Shown here: positions 1,065 to 34,353 of the stretch, piece by piece
How positions within the stretch are numbered: position 1 is the stretch's first letter
How the letters are laid out: every line of letters starts with the position of its first letter
DNA from: a virus
Lineage: Duplodnaviria; Caudoviricetes
Length of the DNA: 64,000 bases
Direction: 5' to 3' (one strand)
Virus record (IMG/VR): IMGVR_UViG_3300011868_000001
Coordinates: 96,001-160,000 of that record
Notes under the pieces: generated by a model
The model's input: only the letters and a program-made list of their open reading frames with translations
What the model was told of the DNA's origin: nothing
Databases searched by the model: none
Translations under genes and position numbers: made by a program

Positions 1065-1785
1065 TATAGGCGGGGAGTTCTCGGTAGCCTGTCTTAAGTG
1101 CCGACGGGGAAGGCACGACAGGAACGGGTGTAGATGGGCCCTCTACCGGACCTCCCCTGTTCTGGACGTTGTGGACGGGAACCGAAACCCGTTCCTCCTC
1201 AGCAGTGCTTTCACCGCTATGCGGGCGGCTAACTCAGATGCATTGTCCAAGTAACCTTGCTGAGGCGTTCGTATGTAAACTACCACAACGAACTGGGTTG
1301 GGGAATTGCCCAGTAACGCTCACGTCACCCTAGACGACTACTTGACTGTCGGGGCGTGGATACCAGGTACAATTCCCCAAACTGGGAGGAAGGGCCGGGA
1401 CTTAGGCAGTGATACCTGGGGGAGGGTTCCTTGCCGGGCTGCTGAAGGCCCTGCAACTCACTACCCTCACCCCGGCCCTTCCAAACAGGACGGGAGAGTC
1501 GTCCGACTGGTCAAGGGGACCAATCCAGCACCAGTCATCCGATCGCCGTGACGAAATCGGTGGACGGCTCTCCCTAACTGAGACAAGTAGTCGGAGTCGA
1601 ACCGACTGGATACAGGGTATCCACAGCTACCACCCTTCCTGACCCGATGCCGACAATATGGCTCCAGGAAGCTAAGGCCGAATCTCACGGCGAGCACGGT
1701 TAAGCTGTACTTGAATTTAAACCGACTGTCGGGACGGCATCCACCTTTACCGCATGCAAGACCTGCACACGACCAACAGTCGAAA
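1065..1785 (-). ncRNA. array of structured non-coding RNA modules, or one large ornate RNA
   Basis: No credible CDS. Consecutive closing stems: 1298-1308/1370-1380 (11 bp perfect), 1388-1399/1471-1482 (12 bp perfect), 1492-1504/1562-1574, 1635-1641/1665-1671, 1723-1732/1773-1782. T-arm GTCGG-TTCGACT-CCGAC at about 1589-1607. Most G-U pairs favour the minus strand. Confidence 0.6.
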
Positions 1786-1786
1786 A

Positions 1787-1862
1787 GGGTCTCAGTGACC
1801 AGGACTCGAACCTGGGACTTGGCCTACGGCCTTTAGTTCTAACCGACTGAACTACCACTGAG
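1787..1862 (-). tRNA. tRNA-like RNA with shortened anticodon arm (pseudo-tRNA or tRNA mimic)
   Basis: Minus strand: acceptor CTCAGTGG/TCACTGAG, D-arm GTTC-AGTCGGTTA-GAAC, T-arm CCAGG-TTCGAGT-CCTGG. The central arm is only GGCC-GTA-GGCC, 3 nt shorter than canonical. The 3' end reads ACCC, not NCCA. Confidence 0.75.
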
Positions 1863-1905
1863 CACGAAATGCTTCGAGAGCGTCCAATGATCGGACGCTC
1901 TGTCG

Positions 1906-1936
1906 CATAGATTACATCCCGCTGTACTTTTTTACG
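1906..1936 (-). promoter_or_regulatory. putative phage promoter for the ncRNA region
   Basis: Minus strand GTAAAAAAAGTAC followed downstream by TATG. Similar GTAAAAA-led motifs occur at about 25038-25050, 34498-34510, 34600-34611, 43218-43229 and 60366-60385. Confidence 0.45.
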
Positions 1937-3089: not shown

Positions 3090-3122
3090 AGAGGAGGGGC
3101 GAACCCCTCCTCTTTACTTTTT
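3090..3122. terminator. hairpin terminator
   Basis: AGAGGAGGGG-CGAA-CCCCTCCTCT followed by a T-rich run. Confidence 0.65.
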
Positions 3123-3548
3123 CATACCTGCACCTTCCATCAGTGACGCGACTGAGGCATCCTCTTTCGAGGAAACGACATCAGAACGCTTCAAGATGGC
3201 TTCTGCTCGGTCACGAGGCAGCTTCAGAAACTCCTGAAAACTGATCCCGGTGTACTTCAACACATTGGCGGCCAAGTACCGCTCAAGGTAGACATCGAAC
3301 GGATCAACGTTTGCCAGGTCCTCTGCGTTATGCATGGCAACCAAGGCGTAGTTGGAATGACCCTGACCACTGCTTTGATAAACACCGAAGTACTCATCAT
3401 AACACTCAGTGGCTACGATCTGGGCAGCGATGCTGTCTAGGGTCTTTTCAGACGTCGACAGCACTGTATCCAGAACGGTGGGTTCATCGATCCGTTCGAG
3501 CTTGTCCATGCCAAATTGACGATCACCGATGTGATGGCCGATCGGCAA
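3114..3548 (-). CDS. hypothetical protein, possible baseplate/tail assembly chaperone
   Basis: Start uncertain (TTG 3548 or ATG 3509). GISFQEFLKLP resembles tail-chaperone motifs; follows the hub-like gene. Confidence 0.55.
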   Translation of the reverse strand: MPIGHHIGDRQFGMDKLERIDEPTVLDTVLSTSEKTLDSIAAQIVATECYDEYFGVYQSSGQGHSNYALVAMHNAEDLANVDPFDVYLERYLAANVLKYTGISFQEFLKLPRDRAEAILKRSDVVSSKEDASVASLMEGAGMKK

Positions 3549-3550
3549 TA

Positions 3551-5155
3551 TTACATCGCCACGCCTTCTACTTGGCTGATCTTCAGCGCGGCTAGGGTGA
3601 AAAAAACGTAGCCGATATCGATTGGGATCAGATGCGGATGGCTGGTGTCGCTGGACTCGCCTTGACAGCTCGGGCACTTGATCTTCGGCAGTGCGACGTA
3701 AGACACCGTCGACTTCTTGATCCAGTCAATGATTTCCCGATTGATCTTCTCGCTCATCTGCGGGTCTTCACTGAGCATCTCAAGGATGCGGTCCTTTTCC
3801 TCGTACCCATCATAGGTAACAGGGATGCTGTCCGGATCAACGGCGTGTTCAAACGCTGCGACCCAATGGCTGTACTGACGCAGGTTGGTCAGAGCACCCG
3901 AACGCATGATGTGTCGAACCCGATCCATCTCGTTCAGACGCGCACCAAACGCCTCGTTGGTGGCCTTGGCGATACCGTCCACCCAGATATGACCAGCGTC
4001 GATCTGCTCGGCCAGCGAGGGTACGCGCAATACCGCAGTCAGCCCCTTGCCAAGCGGCAGGCGCTTCTCGAAGAAGGTGAACTCCTTCTGGTACTCTTCC
4101 AGCCAGGCGCGGTCACGCTTGGTGGTACGCGAGGCCATCATGCGGGCTTGTTTCTCATTGATCTTCTCACGATCAACAAAGCCCATGCGTGCGAAGTTCA
4201 AGAGCAGTTCGTCGACATGACTGCACTTCTCCGGATTGGCCACGCACGGCTGACGCAGCGGATAACCATCCGGATACATGGCGCAGATCAGACCCCAGAG
4301 CACTTGCTGGTAATCGCGCGAACGAATTACCTTGAGCATCTCCTCGACAGTGTCGCCGGTTTCGAACGTGTAGTTCACCGAAACCATGTGCTCAAGCGCA
4401 AAGCGCATGTAGGTCTCGACCGTGTACACTTCGATGCTGGAGAAGACCATGCCGTTGGTCGAACGACCGAGGTTCATCTTCTCCAAACGGGTCTTCTGCT
4501 CGAAGTCCAGCAGTGCCTGTACCGTCGGTGCCCGGAAGGTGATCCACAGGCCCGTGTTCCACAGCGGAACCTGTACCATAGAACCTTGGCCGAACGAGGC
4601 ACGGATGGCCAGGACCGGGTCCTTGATGTTCTGGGTCTTGACCTTGCCCACGCCGAGCTTGGTCTCGTTGTGCAGTACGTACTGACCCCAGTTACCGGAC
4701 TTGTCGATGTTGTCGAAATACAGGTCCTGATAGATACCGGACATGGTACGGGCAAGGTTTACCAAGCGCCGCTCTTCGCGCGTCAGTTTCTCGGCCCGCT
4801 CGTCTGTCAGATCATGCAGATCACGGGATTCGAGCAACTTGGACAGTTCTTCAACACCAACCTTAAGGGCTACCAAATACGGCAGGGCAGGGTCGGTCTT
4901 CTGGCGCTTCAGGATCGGGTTGTCAGCGTTGACATGTTCATTGGGGGCGAATGCCTCATCCCACATGTCCGATGCTTCTTCCTCAGACTCCGGCTCAGCA
5001 GGCAGTTCAGCCTCACTGTTCAGTTGTTCAGCTGCCTGAAGGGTGGCCGCCTCGAAAGAAGCAGCTTGGTCGACATCTGGCACCAGCGTCGAGGAGATGT
5101 CCTCATCGATAGTGTCCATGCCCTCGTCGTGAGTATTGTTCAGTTCGTCCGTCAT
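3551..5155 (-). CDS. putative baseplate hub assembly protein (T4 gp26-like)
   Basis: 534 aa with acidic N-terminus, CVANPEKC, and C-terminal KCPSC...PIDIGYVFF resembling gp26-type proteins. Function inferred. Confidence 0.55.
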   Translation of the reverse strand: MTDELNNTHDEGMDTIDEDISSTLVPDVDQAASFEAATLQAAEQLNSEAELPAEPESEEEASDMWDEAFAPNEHVNADNPILKRQKTDPALPYLVALKVGVEELSKLLESRDLHDLTDERAEKLTREERRLVNLARTMSGIYQDLYFDNIDKSGNWGQYVLHNETKLGVGKVKTQNIKDPVLAIRASFGQGSMVQVPLWNTGLWITFRAPTVQALLDFEQKTRLEKMNLGRSTNGMVFSSIEVYTVETYMRFALEHMVSVNYTFETGDTVEEMLKVIRSRDYQQVLWGLICAMYPDGYPLRQPCVANPEKCSHVDELLLNFARMGFVDREKINEKQARMMASRTTKRDRAWLEEYQKEFTFFEKRLPLGKGLTAVLRVPSLAEQIDAGHIWVDGIAKATNEAFGARLNEMDRVRHIMRSGALTNLRQYSHWVAAFEHAVDPDSIPVTYDGYEEKDRILEMLSEDPQMSEKINREIIDWIKKSTVSYVALPKIKCPSCQGESSDTSHPHLIPIDIGYVFFTLAALKISQVEGVAM

Positions 5156-5656: not shown

Positions 5657-6490
5657 ATGTTTGAAGAACTCTCCGATATCCTGAAGGGTCGAGTCGACCC
5701 GGCCGTGTGGGTCGGTATCAATGCCATCACCTCAGCACTGGAGAAACACAGTGCGACTGTCTGGCAAGAGCGCATCATCACCTTGCGGATGGATGCAAAC
5801 AACCGCGAGATGGGGGCGGTGGTCGAAGAAGCGTTGCACATTATCTACGATCAAGTGCGCGCACTCTTGCAACAGATGCAGATCACGCTGGAACTCGATA
5901 CGCTGTCGATGGACCGCCTGGCGATGATTCTCGAGGCACTGGTATTTACCCCCAACGACTTGGACAGTGAGGCGCTGGCGGCGCTGGAAGCGGGCGAAGA
6001 TACTGTCGAAGCCTTCTGCGATGTGCTGGGTATCTACCTTAACCTCGTGCCCGAGGAACTGATGGAGTACGTCATCGATGTCTCCAATCAGGCCATCCTG
6101 GCGATCCAGGAGAAGCTTGGGCAGAACCTAAGCTATCGGGAAGAAACCGGCGAAGGCGTGGCCGAAACGGTCCGACTCCTCAATCGTCATCAGCTCTTGG
6201 TTGGCGACACACTGACAGTTGGCATGGAGTCCCTGAATCAAGGTACGGCGCCCGGCGCGGACATGACCTCGATGGTCCTGGCTAACCGCGGACGTTTGGT
6301 CGATCTGGCGCCTGATGCGCTGGCCGATGAACTGCTGTCGTTGGCGATCCTGTCCAAAACACCATACGATGCCCTGGAAGACGAAGTCATGCACTTTGTC
6401 GAAGGCATCCTCAATGACCCATTCACGATCCAGCGAGCCTTCAAGCGTATTCGTTCGCGCCTGGGTGAGTTGCCGGAGCACACGCCATGA
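5657..6490 (+). CDS. hypothetical protein (phiKZ gp79-like position)
   Basis: 277 aa, AAGGA RBS, ATGA overlap with the RNAP subunit gene. Confidence 0.75.
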   Translation: MFEELSDILKGRVDPAVWVGINAITSALEKHSATVWQERIITLRMDANNREMGAVVEEALHIIYDQVRALLQQMQITLELDTLSMDRLAMILEALVFTPNDLDSEALAALEAGEDTVEAFCDVLGIYLNLVPEELMEYVIDVSNQAILAIQEKLGQNLSYREETGEGVAETVRLLNRHQLLVGDTLTVGMESLNQGTAPGADMTSMVLANRGRLVDLAPDALADELLSLAILSKTPYDALEDEVMHFVEGILNDPFTIQRAFKRIRSRLGELPEHTP

Positions 6491-14453: not shown

Positions 14454-16520
14454 TTAAATGACTTCCGGGTAGACGAACGGATCGAGCAATCCAGCAGGTC
14501 GCTTGGTGATCAAGTAGCTGTCGGGGTCTTCGATCATGTCCGGCTGACGCTCGTACGCCAGTTGCACGCCGGCAGAACGGTACTGCATGAGTGTGCGGTG
14601 TTCTTCGAACTTCGACGGACGATCGAATGCCGGGAGACCGTAATCATCCGGGTCATCGGCAGGGCGCATCAGACTCAGCAGGATGCCTTCCAAGTGCGCT
14701 ACGTTGACACGCAGCTTGGAGTTGACCAGGTCACTGAAGTCCAGCAGGGCTGCCACTGGATCGTCGTAGCTGGTCAGCATCTTGCCGGAGAACCCATTGC
14801 GCTCGGACTTCTTCGCCGGCGAACGAATGAACGCCTCGACTGCTGCCATGAAATCCAGGGTGGACGCATGGCGCCGTGGCAAGGAGAACGCTGGCTGAGC
14901 AAAGTCCCAGTGCGACAGGTCGATGCAGAAGTTACCGAACTCATCAACAGTGTAGCCGTGTTCTTGGATGTAGTACAACATCACCCGAGACAACGACGCC
15001 AGTCGTGCGCCCTGACTGACAGGGATGAACACCGAGGTGGTCTCATCGCGCAGGTTGGTGACGCGTACCTGCACTTCGCGGAACGACGTGAATCGATGGA
15101 TGTTCAGTCGCTCGATTACGGTTTCCTTGTTGATACTGACCAGACCGGCCCCATTTTCCATGTTCTTGTCAGGCGAGGCTGCCAGGACCAGGACGGGGTT
15201 CATCTTCTTCAGACGCGGGTTGAACTTGAGCAGTGAGCTGTCCTTAGCCGAAGACGGCATGGCTTCACCCAACAACTCTTCGGTCTTCTCGTTCTCTGCT
15301 TCATCCGGGTCAGCGGCGCAGATGTCGATGTACGGCAAGTACTCCTCTGGAATGATGATCTCTTCGACCACCGAGCTACCGTCGAGGTGCTTGACCGACA
15401 GTGTCCGCTGAGAACCCTCGCGGCACAGTTCCGTGGCACAGACGTGGCCCAGTGAGGTATCGCGTGGGATGGACCATGCCAGCTCACCAAAGCAGACGTG
15501 ACAGATGGCTCCCTCACCGCGATGGCGACAGAACATCCCGGAGCGCATGCGGATGGTCTTACCTACCAGATGACGGTCTTCCGCCCGGACAGGCCGGAGC
15601 TTGTTGTTGTCATCCAGGTAGATCTTACCTTCCAGATGCGGCAGAATAACCGAGTCCACCGGAATCTCGGCGTAACGGTCAGAGCCACAGTCTTCCCAGA
15701 TGAGCTTGTCCACCACCGTGGTTGAGAGCTGCATCTTGCGGTTGAAGTACTCAACGATACGCAGCGGCTTCTTGGTGAACATCAGTGCTTTCTTAGCCGA
15801 GCACGACTCGATCATGATGTCGTGTAGCTGAGTCAGGCCCTCGAAGTAACCGGTGGTGATTGGCTTGCGGAAGATCACCTGGTCGATGTCGGTCAGGTAA
15901 CCACGGCAGATCAGAATCTGGAGGAACTGGGCGATCTTGATCTGCTTGCTGCGCAGGCCCCGGACAATCGGGTTGTGCAGGATAGCCGGGTCCTTCATGA
16001 GGATTTCAGTAGCCCGGTCATACGCGGTGGTGATGCTGAGCTGATTCGGCCGGACTGCCAGACGCACTTCCGCCAGTGGCGGGTAGTCGTACAGTTCGAG
16101 CAGATGGAAGGCGTTGATGGACACCTGCCATTCTTCGAGCTTGATGCTCAGCTGGTTGTAGATTTCATTGCCGATGTCCTTGACAATGCGCCAGGCGTCT
16201 TCGCGGTCGTAGCAGGAATCGTGGTTGGCATGCTCGACACCTGGGGTGAAGTAGGTGTAGTGCAAGTCACGCATGATGTTAGACAGCGTTTTGGGAATGG
16301 TCTCGGCACTGGGGAACACGTTGCCGATATGGTGCGAGATGTTCAATGGCGTGCGGGGAAACTTGCGGTGCAGTTCCCAACAGAACCAGCTGAGGGCGGT
16401 CCGACGGGTGGTGGTGGTCAACACCCCATCGTCAAACTCGATCTCAAGCTTCTCATCCGGCAGGGGCCAGACTGCCATGAGATCTTGGTTCATGAAATTA
16501 CGAGCATTGATACGGCGCAT
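14454..16520 (-). CDS. non-virion RNA polymerase beta-prime C-terminal subunit (phiKZ gp74-like)
   Basis: EYFNRKMQL, DCGS, RSGMFC...ICHVCFG and SQRTLSVKH (trigger-loop-like); GGAG RBS before MRRIN. Confidence 0.85.
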   Translation of the reverse strand: MRRINARNFMNQDLMAVWPLPDEKLEIEFDDGVLTTTTRRTALSWFCWELHRKFPRTPLNISHHIGNVFPSAETIPKTLSNIMRDLHYTYFTPGVEHANHDSCYDREDAWRIVKDIGNEIYNQLSIKLEEWQVSINAFHLLELYDYPPLAEVRLAVRPNQLSITTAYDRATEILMKDPAILHNPIVRGLRSKQIKIAQFLQILICRGYLTDIDQVIFRKPITTGYFEGLTQLHDIMIESCSAKKALMFTKKPLRIVEYFNRKMQLSTTVVDKLIWEDCGSDRYAEIPVDSVILPHLEGKIYLDDNNKLRPVRAEDRHLVGKTIRMRSGMFCRHRGEGAICHVCFGELAWSIPRDTSLGHVCATELCREGSQRTLSVKHLDGSSVVEEIIIPEEYLPYIDICAADPDEAENEKTEELLGEAMPSSAKDSSLLKFNPRLKKMNPVLVLAASPDKNMENGAGLVSINKETVIERLNIHRFTSFREVQVRVTNLRDETTSVFIPVSQGARLASLSRVMLYYIQEHGYTVDEFGNFCIDLSHWDFAQPAFSLPRRHASTLDFMAAVEAFIRSPAKKSERNGFSGKMLTSYDDPVAALLDFSDLVNSKLRVNVAHLEGILLSLMRPADDPDDYGLPAFDRPSKFEEHRTLMQYRSAGVQLAYERQPDMIEDPDSYLITKRPAGLLDPFVYPEVI

Positions 16521-16566
16521 CGCTATCTCCGGTGAATGCGGGTGGTAAACCACCCGCTACAGGTTG

Positions 16567-18792
16567 CTATTCGTTGGTGAGTTCCTTACCCGAACACTGG
16601 AACATGTGGCGCATGTACGCCAATGGCCGGTGTCCGCCGACGGGTACCATCTTGCGGTCCAATACTTCTGGAATGTTCGTCGGAGTCGGATGGGTCAACA
16701 GACGCCGCAGCACGAACTTGTGTGCAATCGGGTTGTTACTGGCATCCTTCTGGTCAGCAATGGCTTCACCGCCGCATGTGGCAGCTTCGGCGCGGTATTC
16801 GGATTCACCGACACGGATCGAGGACTGACGACCGGGTGAGTCGTACTTGTCGTTGTTCGACAGGCGTGCCGTGGTACCGAACACGTTACACTTGGCAGAC
16901 GAGGCGGCCATCCAGGAATCTTCGGCTGTCTTCTCCAGGTTGATGTACCAGGAGGGTGCGATCAGCTTGGGTTCACGGGAGACCTTCATCTTGCCGTCAC
17001 GACCCCGGAAACGTACCGGAGTAATGAATGGCGGCCAGCGCTTCTGGATTTCACGGATCACGTCCGGCATGGAGACCGGGTTGTCCGTCGGCATGTACAG
17101 ATACAGTCCGTATAGATGATCCAGCAATACCGATGCCACATGCGTGTGCATGAAGTCCGGGTTCTTTTCACGGAACTTAGGGTCACTCAAGTCTTCGTGC
17201 TGGAATGGCACCACGACCTTGTAAAACTCCATCAGTTCGTTGAACGCTGCCTCCACCAGGTCATTGTTTTCCGGCGTGTAAACGACATCATTGACCTCAT
17301 CCTCGGTCAGCTGGATGTTGCGATCAAAGCCGAAGCTTTCTTGAATCCGCTTACCTAGGTCACGGCCAGCTGCTGAAATGATCATCTCGATCGGAGACGC
17401 CGGGGTTTCCCGGTTCCAGCGAGAGTTCGGGTCCACCACTACGTCAGCGCGGATTCCGTTCTCGTCGACTGGCATGTCTTCGTCGTCGACCACCTCAACC
17501 ACTACCGACTTGTTACCGTTGATGTCGGTGATCTTATAGCCTTTGTTGGGGACTGAGGTGTACTTGAATGTGATCTCCACACGCCAAGCATCCATCTTGA
17601 CCCCACGGTAGACTTTGTCGACCTTACCGCCACCGTCTTCACGCAGCTTGGCATTGAACCCACGGTCCGGTTTGATGTAGTCCGGGCCCACGCGACCGAT
17701 GGCCTCCTTGACGAGTTGGCTAAACTCAGGTTCAAGGCGTAGCGACATGTTGCGCATGGCTGCCTGCTTACGCAGGTTGACCCAGACGTCAACGATCCGG
17801 CGGTACCACTCGGTGTCGGCGTTATAGTACTTCAGCAGTTGCTCTTCCATGCCGACCGGCAGTGGCGGGATATTGATCGAGGTGTTGCGCTCAACCTTGA
17901 TGTCCACAACCACGGCGTCCAAGTGCTGCACGAAACGCTTACGGTCGAAGATGTAGTCGGTCTCAAGCAGAGCCTCAGTCGTCATGTTCGACACCGCACT
18001 GATCGGGTCGTAACGGCGCAGTGCCACCAGCAGGCCAGTGGAGTCTACCTTGTCGCCAAGGTCTGGGAAGATTTTGTACTGCCCAGGTACCCGTGACTGG
18101 TTGATAGGGTAGTACTCCCGACCGAATTCGAACACGCGTGTCTCAAATCCTGTGGGAGCCAGTGCATCCAGATAGCCGCGACGAACCTTGACGCCGTCCT
18201 CAGTCCCGGCGACATCGGAATCCATCAGCAGGTTGGTTTCCCGACCGTACATGTAGTTGCCATGTTCATCGATCAGGGGTGAACGAGCCAGCTTAGTGCC
18301 CTTGCGAAAGCGCTCTCCTTTACGCAGGCGCTCCATGGTATCTGGATCGCGCTTGAACTCGGTACCGAAGTGCTGGTGCGTGACCTGGTAATCGGTCAAC
18401 ATCAACACACCGATTTCACCGGTGTTGTAATTTTCGTAGATCACCGCCGTCTGCGGCGAGTGTTTGATGCGGTTAGCGCCTGCAGTATGGGCAAAGCGCG
18501 GAATGACCTCCAGTACCTGAACATCGTCTGGAAACTCGATAGAAAAGGTCGCCTCCCCAAACGGCCGTTCCATGCCTGACATGATGCGCTTGCGCATCGG
18601 TTCCTTGATGACTACCATCTGGGCGAGGTTGCCGGTGAACATTGCAGCCCGTGATGCCGAAATGTGTCGGATGAACGGATTGAGTCCGTACAAGGACATC
18701 AGTTCGGGTCGCAGCTCGACAGGATTAGTAAGAGCCGGGCTCTTGTAGCGCTGTTCTAATTGTTCTGCGACAGATAGGTTAGTGTTAAGCAT
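16567..18792 (-). CDS. non-virion RNA polymerase beta C-terminal subunit (phiKZ gp71-73-like), uninterrupted
   Basis: SASRAAM, TEDG, KITDINGNKSVV, ADVVVDP and IRVGESE match beta-subunit motifs. Confidence 0.88.
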   Translation of the reverse strand: MLNTNLSVAEQLEQRYKSPALTNPVELRPELMSLYGLNPFIRHISASRAAMFTGNLAQMVVIKEPMRKRIMSGMERPFGEATFSIEFPDDVQVLEVIPRFAHTAGANRIKHSPQTAVIYENYNTGEIGVLMLTDYQVTHQHFGTEFKRDPDTMERLRKGERFRKGTKLARSPLIDEHGNYMYGRETNLLMDSDVAGTEDGVKVRRGYLDALAPTGFETRVFEFGREYYPINQSRVPGQYKIFPDLGDKVDSTGLLVALRRYDPISAVSNMTTEALLETDYIFDRKRFVQHLDAVVVDIKVERNTSINIPPLPVGMEEQLLKYYNADTEWYRRIVDVWVNLRKQAAMRNMSLRLEPEFSQLVKEAIGRVGPDYIKPDRGFNAKLREDGGGKVDKVYRGVKMDAWRVEITFKYTSVPNKGYKITDINGNKSVVVEVVDDEDMPVDENGIRADVVVDPNSRWNRETPASPIEMIISAAGRDLGKRIQESFGFDRNIQLTEDEVNDVVYTPENNDLVEAAFNELMEFYKVVVPFQHEDLSDPKFREKNPDFMHTHVASVLLDHLYGLYLYMPTDNPVSMPDVIREIQKRWPPFITPVRFRGRDGKMKVSREPKLIAPSWYINLEKTAEDSWMAASSAKCNVFGTTARLSNNDKYDSPGRQSSIRVGESEYRAEAATCGGEAIADQKDASNNPIAHKFVLRRLLTHPTPTNIPEVLDRKMVPVGGHRPLAYMRHMFQCSGKELTNE

Positions 18793-32421: not shown

Positions 32422-34353
32422 TTAGAAGCTATTGCCGAAGCCAAAGCCGTTACCGACGTTGCTGCGCAGGCTGCGCTGACCATCACCTACCACACGGCGG
32501 GACAGCATGCCGTGAGTCAGGTCACCACCGGCGAAGTCGCGGATGCGGGTGTTACCGCGGATGCGACGGTTGCCGAAGCTGTAGTGTGCCTGACGCTGAT
32601 CGATGTTGATCTTGCAGTCAGCGACTGCCAGAGCCAGAGCCTCGATGAACTTCGGATTGAAGTACGCGAGGTCGACGTAACGGGCGAACTTCACGTTGGA
32701 AGCACCCAGGGCGCTGGTCAGCTGAGTGAACTGCTCGGATACGCGGACTTCCACATCGAGGTCGGTGCGGTCGATCACGTCCTGGTAGTTCAGCGCCGAG
32801 ACGCCTTCGTCGTTCGGGTTCTGGGCCAGCCAGCGGAGCAGGTCCCACTCGCGCAGGTCGCGCTCCTGACCCTTCTCGTCGATCCAGGTACCGGTCAGGT
32901 AACGGGCACCGGACATTTCCAGCGGCTGCTCAACGCCCAGCTCGCGTGCGCGACGGGAGAAGTTGCCGGCAGTCAGGCGGTCAGCGTAGTCGTACAGACG
33001 GCGGATGGCGTCTGCGGTGACCGAGCTGTCGTTGGCTGCGTCAGCCAGCAGGCTGGTGATCCAGCTGTTGTCGCCACCTTCTTCCAGTTCGATTGCCCAT
33101 GCCAGGCGCTCGTCGACCAGGGAGAAGAAGTACTGACCCCACTTCTGCACGTCCAGGGAGGCACGCGCATCGAACACGACCGGCTCACGGTCAGCATCCG
33201 GGCCGAGGATGTTCAGCAGACCGGTGTCGCGGGTGTCGATCTCACCGCGGGCAACTTCGCCCGGCAGGAAGGTCTGAGCCCAGGCCTGATCCTTGGAGAT
33301 AACCGACGCACCAGCCAGCGCGAGCAGCAGCAGTTCCGGCGTGATGCCGTTGGTGCCGGTGTCCATGCGGTTGATGACGAAGGTCGGGGTGAAGTACGGC
33401 TGATCACGACGCTGGTTGCGTGCCCAACGATCTTCCTGCGCCGGCGGAGTGTACATCAGGTTGACGTAACCGCCCAGGTTGGCCAGCGGGACGCTGACGT
33501 TCTGATCGTTCTTGCGGATCACACCGGCAACGCTGACAGCGATGTCGCTGCGGCGCGGCAGGCCGTCGGCGGACACGGATTCGCGACCGGACAGGTCAAC
33601 GTTGATTTCCAGAGTCGACTGCTTGGTCAGCCACTCGAGGCTGAAGTACAGGTTCGGCTGGAACAGGTCGTTGAACAGAGCAGTCAGAGCGGCCTGCGCG
33701 TAGAACACGACCATGCGTGCTTCGGTGCTTTCCGGCTCGTTGAAGTCGACCTTACGATCGACCACACGCCAGCCTGCGCGGATGATTTCCACGGTGCGGC
33801 GAGTGTTCTGCTCGAAGTTCTTCTTGGCGATGTCGTCGACCAGAGCCAGGTAGCTCTCGGTGATGTAGTCGCTGGCAACGACCGGCAGCTGGTAGCTGCG
33901 GTGGGCGATGTCGACGTTGCGAACGGTCGCTTCGTCGGTCAGGGTGCCTTCCAGAGCCAGAGCGTGGACCAGCACCTTGGTGGTGCCGTTGTCTTCGACC
34001 GGGTAGGCCAGGATGACGGAGGAAACCGACACGTTGTGCTCGGAAGCTTCCAGACCCAGTACCTGAACTTTGCTCAGGTCAATGGCACCAGCACCGGCAA
34101 CCTGACGCTCCGGGGAGAACCAGAACTTGAAGCCCTTGACTGCGCTGACCAGAGCTTCGCCGCTGGTGCGACGGCTCATCGGGGCGCCGAGCAGGCGGTT
34201 CAGGTCGAGCAGGCCAGCTTGCATTTGCGAAGTGGACTGCGCACGGTCTTGACGGTCAGCACGAGCAGCCGGGTTGCTGTTCTCACGCGGGTGGTTCGGC
34301 TGGTCGCCAGTGATGCCATCTTGCTGATTGTTTTGGCTGTCATGAACTGCCAT
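32422..34353 (-). CDS. chmA: chimallin, major phage nuclear shell protein (phiKZ gp54-like)
   Basis: 643 aa directly upstream of the gp55-like gene; strong AAGGAG RBS, extreme codon bias, extended termini, early promoter motif. Confidence 0.82.
   Translation of the reverse strand: MAVHDSQNNQQDGITGDQPNHPRENSNPAARADRQDRAQSTSQMQAGLLDLNRLLGAPMSRRTSGEALVSAVKGFKFWFSPERQVAGAGAIDLSKVQVLGLEASEHNVSVSSVILAYPVEDNGTTKVLVHALALEGTLTDEATVRNVDIAHRSYQLPVVASDYITESYLALVDDIAKKNFEQNTRRTVEIIRAGWRVVDRKVDFNEPESTEARMVVFYAQAALTALFNDLFQPNLYFSLEWLTKQSTLEINVDLSGRESVSADGLPRRSDIAVSVAGVIRKNDQNVSVPLANLGGYVNLMYTPPAQEDRWARNQRRDQPYFTPTFVINRMDTGTNGITPELLLLALAGASVISKDQAWAQTFLPGEVARGEIDTRDTGLLNILGPDADREPVVFDARASLDVQKWGQYFFSLVDERLAWAIELEEGGDNSWITSLLADAANDSSVTADAIRRLYDYADRLTAGNFSRRARELGVEQPLEMSGARYLTGTWIDEKGQERDLREWDLLRWLAQNPNDEGVSALNYQDVIDRTDLDVEVRVSEQFTQLTSALGASNVKFARYVDLAYFNPKFIEALALAVADCKINIDQRQAHYSFGNRRIRGNTRIRDFAGGDLTHGMLSRRVVGDGQRSLRSNVGNGFGFGNSF

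Follow-up and report, generated by a model that had tools for sequence, protein, structure and literature searches.

A conserved array of structured RNA modules, three of them derived from tRNAs, in a jumbo phage related to phiKZ

Results

A structured non-coding RNA locus on the minus strand

Between two minus-strand genes (1939-2397 and 622-1047) of the 64,000-nucleotide (nt) stretch of phage DNA analysed here (the window; bases 96001-160000 of a 253.7-kb IMG/VR record, 96% complete) is an interval of about 890 nt with no open reading frame (ORF) longer than 81 amino acids (aa). We identify this stretch as a conserved structured non-coding RNA locus on the minus strand, made up of a 5' hairpin (M0) and eight self-closing domains (M1 to M8). 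In the reading that we favour, at slightly better than even confidence, the locus is a polycistronic array resembling a transfer RNA (tRNA) operon, whose 5' hairpin and eight independent domains of 60-130 nt would be processed to small RNAs; a counter-defence role of these RNAs is its most speculative part. That the stretch specifies structured RNA is firm because its helices covary in relatives, G-U pairs are in excess and reading frames are not kept.

Folding of the 881-nt stretch on the minus strand gave -362.5 kcal/mol, compared with -313.8 +/- 7.8 kcal/mol for dinucleotide shuffles (z -6.25), and the plus-strand fold gave a z of -4.88 against its shuffles. Upon span-limited folding, M0 and the eight domains tile the minus strand of 1072-1903, every module is closed by its own stem of 6-17 bp, and each unit folded singly beats its shuffles (z -1.8 to -5.6). 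The initial annotation of this DNA, made from the letters and a list of ORFs, had proposed an array of structured modules with their own closing stems at 1065-1900, and this observation holds. Its unit borders were right in part: those at 1298-1380, 1388-1482, 1492-1574, 1723-1782, 1791-1862 and 1878-1900 correspond to M6, M5, M4, M2, M1 and M0, while 1585-1636 and 1635-1671 turned out to be parts of M3, and 1104-1160 and 1163-1249 parts of M8 and M7.

The strand was assigned from the module alignments, in which 105 G-U cells stand against 21 A-C cells; the RNA is therefore on the minus strand, as are the flanking genes, in agreement with the minus-strand G-U bias noted at the outset. Open frames in the stretch are short and the frame is switched between lineages, similarity between lineages appears in all six frames, and insertions and deletions do not come in threes. 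The modules are mutually unrelated in sequence, without repeats or iterons, and the only direct repeat is a 9-19-nt word, CAGUCGGUU, so that the locus is not a repeat or CRISPR array, as first stated. This word occurs three times on the minus strand (1590-1608, 1710-1728 and 1831-1849) at a spacing of 120-121 nt; the copies fall in the D loop of M1, the 3' end of M2 and the T-arm of M3, and may be a trace of ancestral tRNA units.

Covariation among relatives

Syntenic loci were reached in IMG/VR through the flanking proteins (L002 and L005), and nine proteins homologous to the upstream one (P0001-P0009) led to further loci (L008-L025) in JGI, ENA, NCBI and Logan assemblies. The closest cultured relative of the window phage is the Pseudomonas aeruginosa phage pPa_SNUABM_DT01 (DT01). 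All loci share one gene order, in which a phosphatase-like gene is followed by a gap of 140-840 nt and a Sequestin-domain gene, and the helices have been kept in about nine phage lineages despite sequence differences of 20-40%. In a full-length alignment of seven sequences (MAFFT and RNAalifold), 38 of the 192 predicted pairs are compensatory. A covariance model built on M8 (R1) finds exactly one M8 per locus in every alignable lineage and one in the window genome. It also recognises M8 (41.7 bits, E 2.5e-9) in DT01, a phage that had not contributed to the model; there, one further module lies upstream of M8. In the model-based alignment 19 of the 28 pairs of M8 are changed on both sides, a number reached by 0 of 500 shuffles, and pairing is 91.5% compared with 36-47% when the partners are slid. 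On a plain MAFFT alignment the figures are 13 compensatory pairs of 28 and 82.9% paired. Loop motifs of M5 and M8 are also conserved down to DT01. Covariation in relatives, which the initial annotation had named as the evidence to look for, thus supports the structure.

R1 misses L023 and L025 and recognises L024 weakly; the gaps of these loci have structure but could not be aligned. A BLAST search of 50,697 phage records with the stretch returned no match, not even DT01, IMG/VR motif scans gave the two contigs already found and nothing further, and a metagenome scan with an M8 pattern recovered L021 again together with three matches that R1 rejected. RNAalifold also proposed a long-range helix (columns 404-419 with 619-635). 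We attribute this helix to misalignment and reject it, since it would compete with the closing stem of M5, which covaries strongly. Helices between modules had no covariation support, and a search by eye for pairing of the C-rich conserved loops (CCUCCCC, in M5 and M8) with ribosome-binding sites or other modules found nothing covarying.

Architecture of the modules

Table 1. Modules of the RNA locus in 5' to 3' order, with the predicted promoter and neighbouring genes (window positions)
Feature	Position	Strand	Description	Score
Promoter-like motif	1906..1932	-	AAAAAGTAC-N14-TATG; predicted start is the G at 1906, just before M0	
M0	1875..1903	-	11-bp hairpin; predicted 5' end of the transcript	z -5.64
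M1	1791..1862	-	Cloverleaf, tRNA-derived; acceptor, D and T arms intact, anticodon arm collapsed; tail ACCC	
M2	1722..1783	-	Three-way junction; 10-11-bp closing stem; tail GUUUAAAUUC	z -3.26
M3	1584..1713	-	130-nt four-way junction; 6-bp closing stem; tail UCUCA-GUU	
M4	1492..1574	-	13-bp closing stem; two hairpins; tail GUCCU-GUU	z -4.34
M5	1388..1482	-	12-15-bp closing stem; second helix; CAGCA-loop hairpin; tail UCCCA-GUU	z -4.91
M6	1298..1380	-	Long, hairpin-like; 11-17-bp closing stem; tail (A)ACCCA-GUU	z -3.05
M7	1163..1290 (body 1167-1290)	-	Cloverleaf-shaped tRNA scaffold; encoded UCCA tail (1163-1166)	
M8	1072..1157	-	Three-way junction; conserved loops CCAUCUA and CUCCCCGUC; tail GCCUAU; ends about 25-30 nt before the Sequestin-fusion start codon	
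Sequestin fusion, 141 aa	622..1047	-	C-terminal Sequestin domain PF21825; 3' neighbour of the RNA locus	Pfam E 4.5e-10
CX5R (cysteine phosphatase-type) protein, 152 aa	1939..2397	-	Translation motif CGEGRIRS; 5' neighbour of the RNA locus	
Cys/His-rich ORF, 53 aa	2394-2555	-	CDVCGHRRCDKRYNHVKC; between the macro-domain and phosphatase genes	
Macro-domain protein, 169 aa	2571-3080	-	Upstream of the RNA locus; PADLOC DarG model	E 1.8e-22

The hairpin M0 is kept in L002, L005, L008 and L015, with compensatory G-C to A-U changes in L005. Compensatory pairs number 7 of 23 in M2 (99% of cells canonical, five sequences), 5 of 29 in M4, the architecture of which is common to L008 and L005, 19 of 32 in M5 (seven sequences, L017 and L021 among them) and 8 of 28 in M7. 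The closing stem of M6 has been rebuilt from different sequence in L008 and L005, and 7 of its 18 pairs are compensatory in a poorer alignment. Structure-aware alignments gave 92-99% canonical cells across M2, M4, M5, M6 and M7. Besides its helices, M5 carries a conserved single-stranded CAAGGAACC-CUCCCCCAGG. We considered a CsrA/RsmA-type sponge, prompted by a conserved CAAGGAAC in M5, and set it aside, a single site being no sponge. M8 is the sole module found in every alignable lineage.

tRNA ancestry of M1, M3 and M7

Our analysis of sequence and predicted fold shows M1, M3 and M7 to be tRNA-derived and to lack a usable anticodon loop, so that they are predicted to be unable to decode; for these three modules the earlier description as tRNA mimics was right. 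M1 matches the full Rfam tRNA model (RF00005, model positions 1-71) at 41.2 bits, against a gathering score of 29, and its homologue in L005 reaches 42.5 bits. It departs from a tRNA in the anticodon arm, which is 15 nt instead of 18 and lacks the 5-bp stem and 7-nt loop of a tRNA (GGCC-GUA-GGCC in the window, GGCC-UGCG-GGCC in L005); ARAGORN reports the L005 copy as 'tRNA-???' with a 2-nt anticodon. The acceptor stem of M1 is maintained in L005 by compensatory change, and its D arm is identical to the D arm of the DT01 tRNA-Asp. The two exact T-arms seen by the initial annotation are present in M1 (GGTTCGAGTCC) and M3 (GGTTCGACTCC). Besides its large branched arm, M3 has a 6-bp hairpin with a triloop that varies (CCU, AUC or AUU) and a perfect T-arm (GUCGG-UUCGACU-CCGAC) stacked on its closing stem, and its T-arm/acceptor part gives a weak match of 20 bits to the tRNA-Sec model. 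In M7 the acceptor stem is 8 bp (CGUUGUGG/CCACAACG), the D-like arm 4 bp and the T-like arm 5 bp long, and an 8-bp 'anticodon' stem bears a branched insert of about 55 nt. The L015 copy of M7 is called by relaxed ARAGORN, at low confidence, as a tRNA with a 52-nt intron, and in L005 the module is reduced to the 8-bp closing stem and CCCA.

At default settings ARAGORN found no tRNA and no transfer-messenger RNA (tmRNA) in the window or the whole genome, and relaxed settings with intron mode gave low-confidence calls only. Rfam, searched at E<=10 over 900-2100 and at the gathering score over the whole window and the relatives, returned only tRNA, for M1; weak matches to microRNA (miRNA), plastid and bovine leukaemia virus (BLV) families lie far below their gathering scores and were dismissed as chance. 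Nor do M1, M3 and M7 look like parts of a tmRNA, as none has a G3:U70 pair and ARAGORN called no tmRNA. In DT01 a genuine tRNA-Asn and a genuine tRNA-Asp, both with CCA encoded, lie 1.7 kb downstream of the phosphatase gene, directly after a 412-nt unannotated, strongly structured stretch (L031:5744-6155; record 170939-171350) that contains modules. The fold of 5744-6340, both tRNAs included, has a z of -4.1, and the last module of this stretch has a 13-bp closing stem followed by ACCUAGUU.

Predicted promoter and public sequencing data

The promoter-like site of the initial annotation proved real and conserved, at 1906-1932. Nothing else in the window matches the motif (0.02 matches expected), and GTAAAAAAKWAC-N13/14-TATG directly after the phosphatase stop codon is conserved in 10 lineages, the copies in the relatives reading AAAAATTACC-N14-TATG. 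The middle-promoter motif of phiKZ is AAanTTACc centred near -24 with TATG, the G being +1 (PMC4666361). The motif at 1906-1932 conforms to this consensus and is a predicted phiKZ-type middle promoter, from which the phage's own RNA polymerase would transcribe the array, starting at 1906. Composite motifs of this kind number only 2-4 in the 254-kb genome; a second copy, AAAANTAC-N12-15-TATG, lies at genome position 96004 on the minus strand, just outside window base 1-4, 1.9 kb downstream and in the same orientation.

A scan for sigma-70 promoters and intrinsic terminators found no sites. As no terminator-like site separates M8 from the Sequestin-fusion gene, transcription would probably continue into that gene, with the array as the first 850 nt of the transcript. 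The arrangement differs in L021, where M8 is followed by a 17-bp terminator-like hairpin, an unrelated 137-aa ORF and then the Sequestin-like gene.

Parts of the stretch occur in 20 public runs from 16 studies, with habitats that include wastewater, landfill, groundwater, soil and goat gut. Four of the runs were placed on the stretch, all as assembled contigs; uncovered parts carry no meaning. Coverage in the wastewater 'RNA-Seq' runs extends into the flanking genes, and these runs are probably DNA. A 185-nt contig at 1171-1355 occurs in one metatranscriptome (X20), and another run (X14) contains 151-nt records at 1443-1747.

Linkers and predicted processing

The domains are separated by linkers of 7-9 nt that start N-C-C-(N)-A. 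The tails after the closing stems read ACCC, UCUCA, GUCCU, UCCCA, (A)ACCCA, UCCA and GCCUA, with M2 as the exception, and the tails of the relatives are of the same kind. In 6 of the 8 modules a CC is found no more than 4 nt from the closing stem (background 0.215, P ~0.002, a post hoc figure), and all three CAGUU words of the stretch fall in linkers, also a post hoc observation; an exact NCCA is found only in M7. The closing helices are 10-17 bp long in M2, M4, M5, M6 and M8, and 6-8 bp with a T-arm in M1, M3 and M7.

The classical minimal substrate of bacterial RNase P is a long terminal helix (~12 bp) with a 3' NCCA. Because a long helix with a 3' NCCA is such a substrate, we infer that host tRNA-maturation enzymes could cut the array into stable small RNAs. 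RNase P would take each long closing helix with its 3' NCC tail as substrate and cleave on the 5' side, leaving the linkers to RNase E and 3' exonucleases.

Gain, loss and exchange of modules

Modules come and go one at a time. M1 is present only in the window and L005 and is absent from L008 and L015; in L002 and L013 its position is taken by a 172-aa ORF (L002:4754-5272; L013:853-1371) with Walker A-like (GKST) and Walker B-like (ILVDD) motifs and no Pfam, PHROG or PADLOC match. Cargo has been swapped here precisely at the site of M1. L005 lacks M3, the 272 nt of L017 hold no modules other than M5 and M8, and the 211 nt of L018 contain M8 and a stub of M5.

Between the window and L015, identity is 95-100% from M2 up to and including the Sequestin gene but only 50-85% in the phosphatase gene, which places a recombination breakpoint at window 1760-1880 and makes the locus, as judged from these alignments, a mosaic. 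Contig breaks at 1774-1876 in one public run (X3) suggest that the population is heterogeneous at the M1 site. M3 is 97-98% identical between the window and L008 (93-98% over 1584-1760), compared with 70-85% in the L008 flanking genes, and within M3 only the triloop differs. Such high identity could reflect strong constraint or recent exchange.

The phage and its gene neighbourhood

From its gene content the window phage is a nucleus-forming jumbo phage, related to phiKZ and of a distinct clade. We assign it so because it has a gene for a chimallin-type nuclear shell protein (phrog_4795; 32422-34353, minus strand) and two genes for split beta subunits of a multisubunit RNA polymerase (14454-18792, minus strand). 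The CX5R gene is always directly 5' of the RNA locus among the relatives. One of the CX5R homologues P0001-P0009 is named a predicted protein tyrosine phosphatase by JGI, and a PDB sequence search with the window protein gave no significant match. Members of the Sequestin family sequester 3'cADPR and thereby cancel Thoeris (bioRxiv 10.1101/2025.07.12.664507). The 169-aa macro-domain protein is likely an orphan antitoxin-type counter to DarTG, judging from its match to the DarG model. The Cys/His-rich ORF is kept in L002 and L005, and most relatives have a gene call of 51-53 aa for it. Further upstream, two long minus-strand ORFs (3114-3677 and 3551-5155) share a 127-nt overlap. Genes for Ro60/TROVE (PF05731), RtcB (PF01139) and a CCA-adding enzyme are absent from the genome as recovered (254 kb, 96% complete).

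Discussion

The initial annotation had left a choice between a polycistronic non-coding RNA and one large ornate RNA. Our data favour a polycistronic array of separate small RNAs because the modules are gained and lost singly and no helix between modules covaries. A single RNA of about 800 nt, forming one folded or multimeric particle like GOLLD (RF01998) or ROOL (RF03087), would be in keeping with the size (~830 nt), the phage origin, the association with tRNA-like elements nearby and the strong overall folding energy, a likeness that was compared through Rfam. We nevertheless consider it quite unlikely: neither GOLLD, ROOL nor another large RNA of Rfam matches at E<=10, no integrated fold or long-range architecture finds support, the long-range helices of RNAalifold are invariant or in conflict with the covarying M5 closing stem, and viable relatives miss, truncate or swap whole modules. 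Alternatively, the array, or at least M8, may be a cis-acting leader of the Sequestin-fusion mRNA, serving as a 5' stabiliser, a protein-binding operator or a ligand sensor that adjusts the expression of the sponge, rather than giving rise to free small RNAs. M8 ends 25-35 nt before the start of the Sequestin-domain gene in the window, L002, L005, L008, L015, L017, L018 and DT01. M8 and the gene are not separated by a terminator-like site; the strongly conserved M8 loops in a three-way junction are aptamer-like, and the shortest loci retain only M8, with or without M5. We consider such a leader unlikely, since L021 has its terminator-like hairpin and the unrelated ORF after M8, no conserved alternative pairing with the ribosome-binding site was seen by eye, no Rfam riboswitch matches, and seven further self-closing modules and the tRNA ancestry would be left unexplained.

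A decaying tRNA gene cluster made of functionless relics would account for the predicted inability of M1, M3 and M7 to decode, for a genome without a standard tRNA next to a relative, DT01, that keeps tRNA-Asn and tRNA-Asp nearby, and for the dispensability of some modules in relatives. It is very unlikely all the same, because decay would erase pairing, whereas many double-sided changes maintain the helices at 20-40% divergence; moreover, the M1 acceptor stem covaries after the loss of the anticodon arm, and the M5 and M8 loop motifs persist down to DT01. The chance that the stretch is protein-coding, with small or recoded genes, or acts as a DNA-level element such as an origin or packaging site, is slimmer still. 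Stop-to-stop frames reach 118-139 codons and one gene caller placed a 62-aa gene in L010, but the frames are not kept and the pattern of similarity and indels is not that of coding sequence; against a DNA element, the excess of G-U over A-C shows selection on one RNA strand rather than on DNA hairpins, and no repeats or iterons are present.

Several observations weigh against a processed polycistronic array with a counter-defence role. The contigs from public runs show neither transcription, ends, levels nor processing. Most linkers are CCA-like rather than exact CCA, M2 has no such linker, and the linker statistics are post hoc. The RNA would be made inside the phage nucleus and would have to be exported for host RNase P to reach it. 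Recombination, rather than constraint, may explain why M3 is so nearly identical between lineages. M8 lies within about 30 nt of the start of the Sequestin-domain gene in 8 of 9 lineages and could act in cis.

The initial annotation saw here an undescribed system, which was too strong, as T4 rnaC and rnaD are of the same kind. To our knowledge, the stable non-tRNA RNAs of phage tRNA clusters, familiar since T4 rnaC and rnaD, have never been explained. T4 rnaC (species 1, 139 nt) and rnaD (species 2, 119 nt) end the T4 tRNA cluster after tRNA-Arg; like the array they are phage-encoded, non-coding and arranged head to tail, their own spacers of 1-6 nt lying in a tRNA transcription unit. The rnaC RNA is built like M3, from a closing stem, a large arm, a hairpin and a perfect T-arm (CCGGG-UUCGAAU-CCCGG in rnaC), and in both the T-arm lies directly 5' of the 3' strand of the closing stem. 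The T4 RNAs differ from the array in having no detectable sequence relation to it; the array has eight units, most of them three-way junctions without a T-arm, a phiKZ-type promoter, anti-defence neighbours and no genuine tRNA in the genome.

Other comparisons are more distant. The TMERs (tRNA-miRNA-encoded RNAs) of murid gammaherpesvirus 68 (MHV68) are reportedly clustered non-decoding tRNA-like RNAs, whose tRNA shape is said to recruit host processing enzymes that release linked small RNAs. The array shares with them a virus-encoded cluster of tRNA-like RNAs that are not for decoding, but the TMERs belong to a eukaryotic virus, are made by RNA polymerase III and carry linked pre-miRNA hairpins; there is no relation of sequence or host, and processing of the array is predicted. 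RNase P also cleaves substrates outside tRNA that present a helix and a 3' CCA, as in the C4 RNA of phages P1 and P7, the CI RNA of P4 and the 4.5S RNA precursor, and in plant mitochondria tRNA-like t-elements act as punctuation for RNA ends. The array is similar in its closing stems (most at least 10 bp) and in the CC of its tails, from which cleavage is predicted; it differs in that most tails are CCCA, CCUA or CCU and not CCA. YrlA-type Y RNAs, which are bound by Ro60, likewise show non-decoding tRNA mimicry with a T-arm and acceptor-like stems, whereas the array has no such Rfam match and its genome lacks Ro60/TROVE and RtcB genes.

As for function, a counter-defence role of the array is plausible because its neighbours encode a DarG-like macro domain, a CX5R phosphatase and a Sequestin sponge. 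Counter-defence has been documented both for orphan DarG-like enzymes and for phage tRNA loci (PMC11825919, PMC13096335). Most speculatively, the released RNAs would play no part in translation and would act in counter-defence as non-decoding mimics of tRNA ends or as protein- or ligand-binding RNAs. The more specific proposal of an RNA counter-defence device of nucleus-forming phages, in which anticodon-less tRNA-end mimics (a long helix with an NCCA-like tail), set free by the tRNA-processing enzymes of the host, would soak up or misdirect tRNA-cutting or tRNA-modifying defence enzymes and M8, upstream of the Sequestin gene, would bind a defence protein or immune signal, we regard as unlikely.

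The locus is thus of a kind already known, the accessory RNAs of the T4 rnaC/rnaD type, here unusually large, tRNA-free and located in an anti-defence island. With eight covarying modules, three of which are visibly remodelled tRNAs, it provides a rich and conserved example of the non-tRNA stable RNAs of phages. The presence of M8 in DT01, a cultured phage of P. aeruginosa, opens expression, processing and deletion phenotypes to direct testing. If the released RNAs do act in counter-defence, a class of RNAs would join the protein inhibitors that dominate the field.

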